Shown here: positions 33,491 through 33,697 of the stretch, piece by piece
How positions within the stretch are numbered: the stretch's first letter is position 1
Layout of the letters: each line of letters opens with the position of its first letter
DNA from: Candidatus Saccharimonadales bacterium
GTDB taxonomy: Bacteria; Patescibacteriota; Saccharimonadia; Saccharimonadales; EFPC-124
Length of the DNA: 64,000 bases
NCBI GenBank assembly: GCA_050730875.1
Contig: JBOHNX010000002.1
Location: forward strand, 2,894 to 66,893
Direction of reading: 5' to 3'
Notes under the pieces: model-generated
Seen by the model: only the letters and a program-made list of their open reading frames with translations
Databases searched by the model: none
Told to the model about the DNA's origin: nothing
Made by a program: the position numbers and the translations under genes

Positions 33491-33697
33491 AGCAAAATAC
33501 CCTACCTTTGCGTGGGGTATTTTGCTTGCGTGGGATTTGACCGCAGGTTGAGGACAGCCCGAACCTGCCAGTGGCAGGTGAGTTTACCTTTGAAGAGACG
33601 GATGATGAAGCGGCTGTCCGAAGAATCCTTGTTAAGCCGAACGGAAGCGTTAGCTGGAGTGAGCAGAATACGAGCGAATCCCATCATTCGCCCCAAG
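33491..33697 (+). repeat. tRNA-associated miniature element, copy B (ends in 21-nt copy of the tRNA-His 3' end)
   Basis: 33677-33697 is identical to 33472-33492. There is a 12-bp hairpin at 33491-33526, a long-range stem 33552-33559/33612-33619 and the 49-nt core at 33616-33664 (47/49 identical to copy A). Confidence 0.7.

Follow-up and report, generated by a model that had tools for sequence, protein, structure and literature searches.

Introduction

Integration by way of a folded single strand of DNA has reportedly been described for the attP site of CTXphi and for the Xer-dependent integrative elements (IMEX). In both, two inverted target-like sites lying ~90-110 nucleotides (nt) apart fold so that the stem mimics the chromosomal target, which happens in one strand only; after integration of CTXphi, the target is restored at one end, and the inverted copy, a spacer of ~100 nt and a hybrid site stand at the other. 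Here, we describe a module of comparable arrangement at transfer RNA (tRNA) genes of a Candidatus Saccharimonadales bacterium, in a stretch of 64,000 nt of contig JBOHNX010000002.1 (assembly GCA_050730875.1, positions 2,894 to 66,893 of the forward strand), hereafter the window. The segment under study, 33543-33664, is part of copy B, one of five copies of the module in this 64-kb window. As in CTXphi, inverted and direct copies of the target, in this case the T arm of a tRNA gene, flank the ~105-nt module and can pair to mimic the target, and the commonest layout of the module has the post-integration topology of folded single-strand elements. However, the target is the T arm and not dif, no Xer sites, phage genes or replication gene were found, the DNA between the repeats is often a terminator alone (~185 bp in all), and the spacer is itself a conserved structure of two hairpins.

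Genomic islands and prophages are said to integrate in the T loop or at the 3' end of genes for tRNA or transfer-messenger RNA (tmRNA) by means of tyrosine integrases, and a direct repeat beginning in the T loop is the classical mark of such integrase-type islands. The 3'-end direct repeat at the module likewise starts in the T loop, beside an intact tRNA gene (21 nt at copy A and 19 nt at copy B), and the likeness extends to element-borne restoration of the tRNA, tmRNA-like ends, cargo between the repeats and tandem arrays (copies D and C at tRNA-Pro). In contrast to the islands, the elements are tiny, no integrase lies in or near the islets examined, the same module is used at more than 13 tRNAs, the T arm occurs in an additional, inverted copy, and some junctions lie in the D loop, in the variable loop or at position +1.

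Short multi-copy extragenic hairpins with covarying stems, which can act as terminators, are known as repetitive extragenic palindromic (REP) sequences and bacterial interspersed mosaic elements (BIME) with their REP-associated tyrosine transposases (RAYT), and as palindromes derived from IS200/IS605. The single-strand fold of the module is strand-specific as well, and a G(T/A)AG-like motif stands 5' of the hairpin in many copies (CCGTAGG, CCGATAGG); in the form G(T/A)(T)AGG it precedes the first hairpin in many copies and is absent in some. The differences are the two-hairpin build with an invariant 15-mer, the confinement to tRNAs (all five copies in the 64 kb) and a copy number per genome in the tens, not in the hundreds; Pfam revealed no RAYT or TnpA gene among 64 open reading frames (ORFs) of the window. 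Rickettsia palindromic elements, Correia elements and repeats resembling miniature inverted-repeat transposable elements (MITEs) are small, structured and non-autonomous and insert into genes, RNA genes included, in genomes that are reduced or naturally competent. The module resembles these small structured repeats of small genomes, also in that its copies can be nested, but it differs from MITEs in having neither intrinsic terminal inverted repeats nor a short target-site duplication: the inverted repeats at its flanks vary among the copies, their source being the local tRNA or other local sequence (related loci L028 and L090; loci outside the window are given by L numbers throughout). Integron attC sites conserve structure while the stem sequence is free, and recombine as one folded strand. 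Both traits recur in the module, where the structure is kept, the stem sequence is free and one particular strand is folded, but neither of the attC core sites (RYYYAAC, GTTRRRY) occurs in the 67-copy consensus, and no integron integrase or cassette array was found with the module. A tRNA intron, of group I or of the bulge-helix-bulge type, was rejected because an intact tRNA adjoins each interrupted one and most interrupted copies have no 5' half; no Rfam match to a group I intron was obtained in the window. The family thus belongs neither to the Rfam families nor to MITEs, attC sites, tRNA introns or integrase-bearing islands, and is distinguished from other small structured repeats by its confinement to tRNA loops and by a built-in pair of tRNA-derived arms.

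Saccharibacteria and other members of the Candidate Phyla Radiation (CPR) have tiny genomes and need DNA from other cells, and how these genomes are rearranged and gain genes is little understood. The module family marks most of the tRNA genes seen here and is associated with partial duplications of tRNAs as well as with small foreign-gene islets. If mobile, it would be a compact, enzyme-free-looking system that targets tRNA loops while preserving the gene, and would give direct access to the flow of genes in a phylum that is uncultivated; as an RNA, it would be widespread and conserved, of unassigned function, with a built-in mimic of a tRNA end. Either way, it offers a simple marker and a covariance model for complete genomes and transcriptomes.

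The module family and its fold

The module is ~105-110 nt long and consists of two hairpins, P1 and then P3. Its 5' side carries a short GNRA-like turn (CC-GATA-GG). P1 is a hairpin of 8-11 bp with an invariant CC-AGY-GG tip and a base often made of tandem G.A pairs; it is followed by a near-invariant 15-mer with the consensus WWTCCTNGYTWRGCC, also written (T/A)(T/A)TCCTNGYTWRGCC, and by P3, an irregular hairpin with a GA-rich internal loop, the 3' terminus of the module being GAGC(A). A loose pattern scan of the window, for a CCAGYGG-tipped hairpin followed after ten bases by the 15-mer, gave exactly five sites: A at 23.6 kb (minus strand), B at 33.6 kb (plus), C at 43.3 kb (minus), D at 45.1 kb (minus) and E at 45.3 kb (plus). 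A covariance model (R1) built on 67 distinct copies, with copy B absent from the seed, recovered the same five, B included, and no sixth. All five touch sequence of tRNA-Lys, tRNA-His or tRNA-Pro; five tRNAs were predicted by ARAGORN in the window, and its genes are ordinary housekeeping genes.

The simple marker of the family, CCAGYGG-N10-WWTCCTNGYTWRGCC, was used to scan metagenome contigs of the JGI and yielded 90 loci, ~80 of which are true relatives with the same architecture. With R1, ~92 copies scored at least 50 bits in 92 related Saccharimonadales-like metagenome loci. Several of these loci encode homologues of window proteins (RNase Y, 68-79% identity; YmdB, 65%; SHMT, 69%), and the PGK of L090 has its best named relatives in Saccharimonadales/Patescibacteria. 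At its gathering thresholds, Rfam 15 reported only tRNAs in the window, and around copies A and B at E-values up to 10 nothing exceeded 27 bits, against thresholds of 37-229. An exact 18-mer from the core of A and B had no match in viral contigs, and its seven matches in 185,579 reference genomes were dismissed as chance, all lying within unrelated sequence. The 15-mer itself is present in 80 viral contigs; R1 scored at most 20 bits there, so these occurrences are chance matches. Full-text literature searches gave no description of the module family.

The first-pass annotation had suggested, from five copies, that paired substitutions preserve a helix, as unconstrained spacer would not, and had proposed collecting and aligning homologues as the check. 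Both the collection and the alignment bear this out, with overwhelming covariation, far above background, in P1 (67-92 homologues). Among the 67 distinct homologues, P1 comprises 11 pairs, of which the two CC/GG pairs of the tip are invariant and the other nine all show double-sided change. Double-sided cells numbered 126 as against 29.3±4.3 in shuffled alignments (0 of 500 reaching this value), and sliding the partners by one to three columns left 12-30. Tandem G.A/A.G pairs occupy the positions next to the base in 39 of the 67 copies, with Watson-Crick pairs in most others. The 15-mer and the AGY loop are invariant or nearly so in the same alignment, and a short helix between TGCT of the 15-mer and AGCA after P3 is possible, both of its sides being invariant. 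The length of P3 is variable; its asymmetric internal loop is conserved and reads TGGA/GAA in many copies. Because of this variation and of non-canonical pairs, RNAalifold did not recover the hairpin from MAFFT alignments; the mean z-score of its folding is modest (-1.13), so P3 rests on the reading of the alignment together with this z-score. Read by eye, both P3 stems change by compensation (GCCTTGCG/CGCAGGC vs GCCCATCG/CGTGGGC vs GCCTCGCC/GGGCAGGC), and compensating changes in the second hairpin also separate the orthologous tRNA-Leu loci L055, L068 and L022.

The fold is strand-specific. P1 contains 20 G.U as opposed to 4 A.C pairs, its G.A pairs would be C.U on the opposite strand, and RNA folding favours the sense over the antisense strand in 59 of the 67 copies (mean 3.5 kcal/mol; Wilcoxon, 6e-11), these strand counts being taken regardless of the shared ancestry of the copies. 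The G.U excess, the G.A pairs and the sense-strand stability point to a constraint that acts on a single strand, of RNA or of DNA, rather than on a simple palindrome in double-stranded form. P1 is followed by GTTTTCC in most copies and by GAATCC in A, B and C, and P1 of copy E scored as terminator-like. However, a terminator role leaves the conserved 15-mer and P3 unexplained.

Position at tRNA genes and signs of movement

The most informative feature of the family, missed by the first-pass annotation, is that all copies are set in sequence derived from tRNAs, part of which repeats the 3' end of the neighbouring tRNA. The module always lies at a breakpoint inside such sequence; its junctions fall in a T, variable or D loop or coincide with tRNA position +1, and more than 13 tRNA types carry it, in addition to tmRNA-like 3' ends. 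In the commonest layout, an intact tRNA is followed by a terminator, an inverted T-arm copy, the module and a direct copy of the last 20-22 nt of the tRNA. The sense tRNA 3' end stands 72-88 nt upstream of the P1 tip in ~50 of 85 copies; the direct copy begins 20-22 nt from the tRNA 3' end in 24 of 32 loci, and the direct repeats span 19-29 nt. Compared without gaps to the cognate antisense tRNA, the inverted copy is 60-100% identical over positions 13-24, counted from the 3' end; farther out, the identity is almost that of random sequence. In 8 of 32 loci the inverted copy begins with TGG exactly opposite CCA. An extreme case is a perfect palindrome in L093, formed by 26 nt, the terminator and again 26 nt.

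Several loci deviate from this scheme. The module abuts +1 of an antisense tRNA in copy E, L029, L039 and L079; it lies in the opposite orientation between the tRNA terminator and the displaced fragment in L052, L013 and L050; and in a further layout a pseudo-tRNA 5' part, the module, a promoter-like stretch and an intact tRNA follow each other (L069, with the junction at the D loop; L085 and L098, at the T arm). Copies thus occur in both orientations relative to the tRNA (E, L029 on its minus strand, L039, L052, L013, L050), and module orientation is independent of tRNA transcription. Terminator-like hairpins stand upstream of A and D, and by eye a similar A/T-flanked hairpin precedes B, which the scan did not call; no promoter-like site adjoining copy A or B was found.

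Copies A and B, at different tRNAs of one genome, share 53 of 55 core positions: outside the stem they are identical at 8 of 8 and 45 of 47 positions, and their flanks are unrelated. Their 29-nt core and 15-nt tail occur in the window only at these two places, with 0 matches expected from shuffles. Moreover, one P3 type is found at two tRNAs, in copy D (tRNA-Pro) and in L029 (tRNA-Met), and copies are nested in B and in L074, L047 and L030. L028 and L090 carry near-identical modules that are flanked by different perfect inverted repeats of 22-23 bp, not derived from tRNA, and in L091 and L010 the inverted copy derives from another tRNA than the neighbouring one. The presence of the module also varies among relatives: at tRNA-Pro it is absent in the closest ones, L008 and L009 (YmdB, 71-74%), and stands on each side of the gene in the more distant L079. 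The displaced tRNA-Pro fragment at 43230-43202 has a T arm (GCAG/CTGC) of the type of the L009 tRNA-Pro, and the working gene of the window has another one; therefore, the 3' part of the tRNA-Pro gene of the window was replaced by incoming DNA. Cargo between tRNA and repeat consists of genes for a high-GC secreted protein and an FMN reductase in the window and of one ORF each in L012 and L031.

Interpretation of the module

The flagged segment may well be one copy of a mobile or integrative DNA module, non-autonomous and specific to Saccharimonadales-like (CPR) bacteria, whose working state is a folded single strand; we hold this interpretation tentatively, and infer in it that the module moves, that it takes the form of single-stranded DNA and that an enzyme acts on it. 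The module would be the recognition structure of an element inserting into the loop of a tRNA gene, with the incoming DNA supplying either a replacement tRNA end and its own terminator or a 5' part and a promoter. As the replacement part is supplied, the gene would stay intact, and the direct repeat would be what is left of the displaced end. When active, the element would be a folded single strand, with the target duplex recreated by pairing between the direct and the inverted T-arm copies; the module would be the spacer in the fold and the terminator hairpin would cap the opposite side. The chemistry would be done by a putative recombinase in trans. A bolder version, which we regard as improbable, would see here a new class of tRNA-targeting mobile elements in CPR bacteria, dumbbell-like single strands with paired T arms and with the module and the terminator as caps. 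Such elements could insert into exposed loops of tRNA genes, bringing a spare tRNA end, and could be retargeted to any tRNA by arm exchange; a recombinase of the host could serve as their enzyme, or catalytic or guide activity could reside in the module itself.

Several observations weigh against a mobile module. Pfam searches of the 64 window ORFs gave no integrase, transposase, HUH enzyme or reverse transcriptase; no recombinase is present in the cargo islet of the window, the cargo ORFs of L012 and L031 being listed without a domain search; and no protein family recurs beside the modules, since an all-versus-all BLAST of 311 ORFs within 3 kb of them returned only syntenic housekeeping clusters. 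BLAST of copy B against phage records and of a consensus-like copy (L055) against phages and plasmids gave no match, and R1 found no module copy in those viral contigs that bear the 15-mer. No strain-level pair of empty and filled sites and no excised form was obtained; an exact-protein look-up for strain variants of the VIT1 neighbour gave no record. In the orthologous loci L055, L068 and L022 the fold is kept by compensation while the adjoining tRNA fragment decays, which indicates selection at the locus; a dead insertion would agree with this less well than an RNA or a function for the host. Tandem G.A pairs and the conserved asymmetric UGGA/GAA loop are typical of protein-binding RNAs. The units between the repeats, often just ~185 bp long, could not accommodate any autonomous or circular replicon known so far.

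An important question is whether the module is instead a structured non-coding RNA or RNA domain, made as a tRNA 3' trailer or from a pseudo-tRNA promoter, which is possible although rather unlikely. Its hairpins, GA-rich loop and single-stranded 15-mer would bind a protein or another RNA, and the flanking T-arm copies would close a stem ending like a tRNA acceptor/T minihelix with CCA. The strand-specific fold with its G.U and tandem G.A pairs, the massive covariation of P1, the compensation at orthologous loci with a decaying tRNA fragment, and the invariance of the unpaired 15-mer and loop among genomes whose proteins are only 65-80% identical would all be expected of such an RNA, as would the fact that most copies are co-oriented with, and downstream of, a tRNA. 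It is difficult to reconcile with the terminator-like hairpin between tRNA and module, with the lack of a promoter-like site at A and B, with P1 followed by TTTT, which resembles a terminator and makes a full-length transcript doubtful, and with antisense copies (those of the type of E, L039 and L029) that retain the sense-strand G.A pattern; nesting and presence/absence among relatives are unlike an ordinary RNA gene, and Rfam offers no match. The first-pass annotation had not chosen between a structured RNA and a DNA hairpin site. The helix that it proposed is now well supported, and the upstream terminators, the missing promoter at A and B, the terminator-like P1-TTTT and the antisense copies make us lean to DNA that folds as a single strand. 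Alternatively, the module might have no dedicated function and be a scar of hairpin-driven replication errors, that is, of snap-back or template switching as in tandem inversion duplications. The switching would take place at the terminator and T-arm palindromes, the module would be a hairpin-rich spacer or at most a terminator, with stems that owe their perfection to quasi-palindrome correction and not to selection. The sense, inverted, sense order of the tRNA 3' region with turns at the palindromic terminator and the module, the perfect palindrome of L093, junctions at short ACC/CC microhomologies (in an alignment read by eye), the terminator score of P1 with TTTT, and the Ku and LigD genes of the window speak for such an origin. 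Yet correction by template switching yields perfect Watson-Crick stems and not a strand-biased G.U excess with conserved G.A pairs, and the scar would not account for a 15-nt single-stranded block and an AGY loop invariant in more than 60 independent loci, for one module at more than 13 tRNA types and tmRNA-like 3' ends, or for near-identical copies at different tRNAs of one genome, so that we give it only a small chance.

Very unlikely, in our opinion, is a cassette that is spread by natural transformation and homologous recombination with no enzyme of its own, like the 'minimal mobile elements' of Neisseria. The intact tRNA and the 20-22 nt repeat would then be homology arms shared by relatives, and the module a passenger, an uptake signal or a recombination-stimulating signal. 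Each cassette is indeed bounded by the sequence of one tRNA on both sides, no recombinase was seen in the cargo islets (the L012 and L031 ORFs again without a domain search), the tRNA-Pro 3' part was replaced by a foreign version, and type IV pilus genes are present in the window. However, the inverted T-arm copy, the nesting, the insertions at +1, in the D loop and in the variable loop, and the near-identical modules at different tRNAs stay unexplained; an arm of 20 nt would be at the lower limit for RecA-dependent exchange; and an uptake signal is expected genome-wide, whereas all five copies in the 64 kb stand at tRNAs. Other candidates were discarded on specific grounds: a CRISPR homing guide or that of a CRISPR-associated transposon (CAST), as no cas or tns genes and no array are present; an omega RNA of TnpB/IscB, which would target the intact tRNA, and no such ORF was seen; a retroviral-type primer-binding site, with no reverse transcriptase; tmRNA or Y RNA, with no match in Rfam or by ARAGORN; and a split or intron-bearing tRNA, as an intact copy is always adjacent.

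Module copies in the window

The coordinates of the copies and of the neighbouring tRNA sequences are given in Table 1.

Table 1. Module copies and associated tRNA features of the 64-kb window (R1, covariance model of the module family).
Feature	Position	Strand	Basis or remark
tRNA-Lys(CTT), intact	23703..23779	-	ARAGORN; terminator-like hairpin next, 23693-23672
Module copy A	23524..23628	-	R1, 45.9 bits; P1 23610-23592, 15-mer 23587-23573
Direct copy of the last 21 nt of tRNA-Lys (cgagccccagatggccctcca)	23516..23536	-	Sequence reading
tRNA-His(GTG), intact	33414..33490	+	ARAGORN, Rfam; last 19 nt recur at 33677-33695
Imperfect inverted copy of tRNA-His T arm (gtgggatttgaccgcagg)	33530..33547	+	Left flank of copy B; sequence reading
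Module copy B	33534..33687	+	R1, 36.4 bits, E 8e-13
P1 of copy B, arms GGACAGCC 33552-33559 / GGCTGTCC 33612-33619	33552..33619	+	Homologous P1 covaries
Nested degenerate second module in P1 loop of B (CGAACCTGCCAGTGGCAGGTGAG, then TTTACCTTTG)	33560..33611	+	Partial R1 match 33563-33579
15-mer of copy B, AATCCTTGTTAAGCC	33624..33638	+	Columns invariant in 67-copy alignment
P3 region of copy B, terminus GAGTGAGC	33639..33664	+	Sequence and alignment
Direct copy of the last 19 nt of tRNA-His, T loop through CCA	33677..33695	+	Sequence; same junction in 24/32 related loci
Displaced tRNA-Pro T arm, acceptor 3' strand, CCA	43202..43230	-	Sequence reading
Module copy C	43217..43327	-	R1, 72.5 bits
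Direct tRNA-Pro T-arm copy 45057-45039, 18-nt insert 45038-45021, tatccccgaca 45020-45010	45010..45057	-
Module copy D	45045..45152	-	R1, 70.4 bits; downstream of tRNA-Pro and terminator
tRNA-Pro(TGG), intact	45212..45288	-	ARAGORN
Module copy E, antisense to tRNA-Pro	45271..45379	+	R1, 76.6 bits
Strong promoter-like site TTGAGA-17-TATAAT of tRNA-Pro	45418-45390	-	Upstream of copy E

Copies A and B share the core and the stem as the first-pass annotation had read them, the sequence being confirmed at 23610-23592 (minus strand) and 33552-33619. On the minus strand, copy A reads GGTTGAGG, GGGCTGCC (23610-23603), AGC, GGCAGTCC (23599-23592) and GAAGAATCCT; copy B reads GGTTGAGG (33546-33553), GGACAGCC, a 52-nt insert, GGCTGTCC and GAAGAATCCT. 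The two stems differ, as had been noticed, by a swap that preserves pairing: one double change (T-A to A-T), to which one single-sided change (G.T to A-T) is added. GGTTGAGG is present in both copies as reported, although in copy A its GGTT belongs to the sense copy of the tRNA-Lys T arm (ggtgtccttgggtt), of which it is the continuation; ahead of this module, the variable loop and the 5' strand of the T stem of tRNA-Lys are repeated in sense orientation. The 52-nt insert in the loop of copy B and its second hairpin (CCTGCCAGTGGCAGG, 33564-33578) were likewise found, but the insert is a nested degenerate module and not a simple loop expansion. An inverted T-arm flank like that of copy B is also present in 32 related loci. 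Hairpins follow both tRNA-Lys and its 21-nt repeat (23702-23660 and 23516-23480, minus strand); their outer parts are common (AAAAAAGAC...GTC(C)TTTT.T.TATGG) and their inner stems differ. With the outer parts in common, the duplicated unit may include the terminator and not the tRNA end alone.

The recurrence of the hairpin at tRNA-Pro with compensatory variation, another point of the first-pass annotation, holds for C, D and E, whose CCAGYGG tips lie at 43297-43303 (minus), 45122-45128 (minus) and 45295-45301 (plus) and among which there are five further double changes (two and three). Copy E occupies the 5' leader of tRNA-Pro, between the promoter-like site and +1, which its P1 (45286-45310) abuts. 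Copy D is preceded by an inverted T-arm piece (ctcgcacctccgacc), and after it the T arm and acceptor strand of tRNA-Pro are repeated. Copy C stands 1.9 kb beyond D, at the variable loop of a tRNA-Pro(CGG)-like sequence (5' part, 43357-43313) whose acceptor strands are mismatched to each other.

Some smaller features were seen at the same tRNA genes. An 18-nt insert after copy D (45038-45021, minus strand; acgtctaggggaaataac), with CTA at both sides, splits the tRNA-Pro 3' fragment. In L008 (6460-6630), another hairpin-rich stretch of 170 nt upstream of tRNA-Pro takes the place of copy E and gives no match with R1. A second small insert family, GGTGAAAACTGCCnnnGGCAGTTTGCAAGG...GGGACCGCGGAACGTG, was found in L098 (-260 to 0 before the module) and L082 (upstream), at the anticodon-loop position 37/38 of a pseudo-tRNA-Leu; this pseudogene bears a different insert in each of its D, anticodon and T loops. 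Pseudo-tRNA 5' fragments in L098 and L081, directly upstream of a TATAAT box and an intact tRNA, contain a third hairpin insert, CCCCACAAA...GTGGGGACCCCG, in their D-loop region.

The gene for the 210-aa secreted protein (44198-44830, plus strand; no Pfam match) and that for the FMN reductase (43362-44018, minus) form a 1.7-kb islet bounded by repeats of the tRNA-Pro 3' end. Its local GC content is ~0.57-0.59 compared with ~0.49 for the window, and that of the neighbouring 42001-43000 is 0.587; the islet may be a transfer from a high-GC donor, for example an actinobacterial host. Finally, two Ku genes and a complete LigD (phosphoesterase, ligase and primase-polymerase domains) are encoded within 14 kb (8005-8898, 17692-20139 and 20143-21615, all on the minus strand), and Ku/LigD end joining in a reduced CPR genome could bear on the origin of hairpin-flanked rearrangements.

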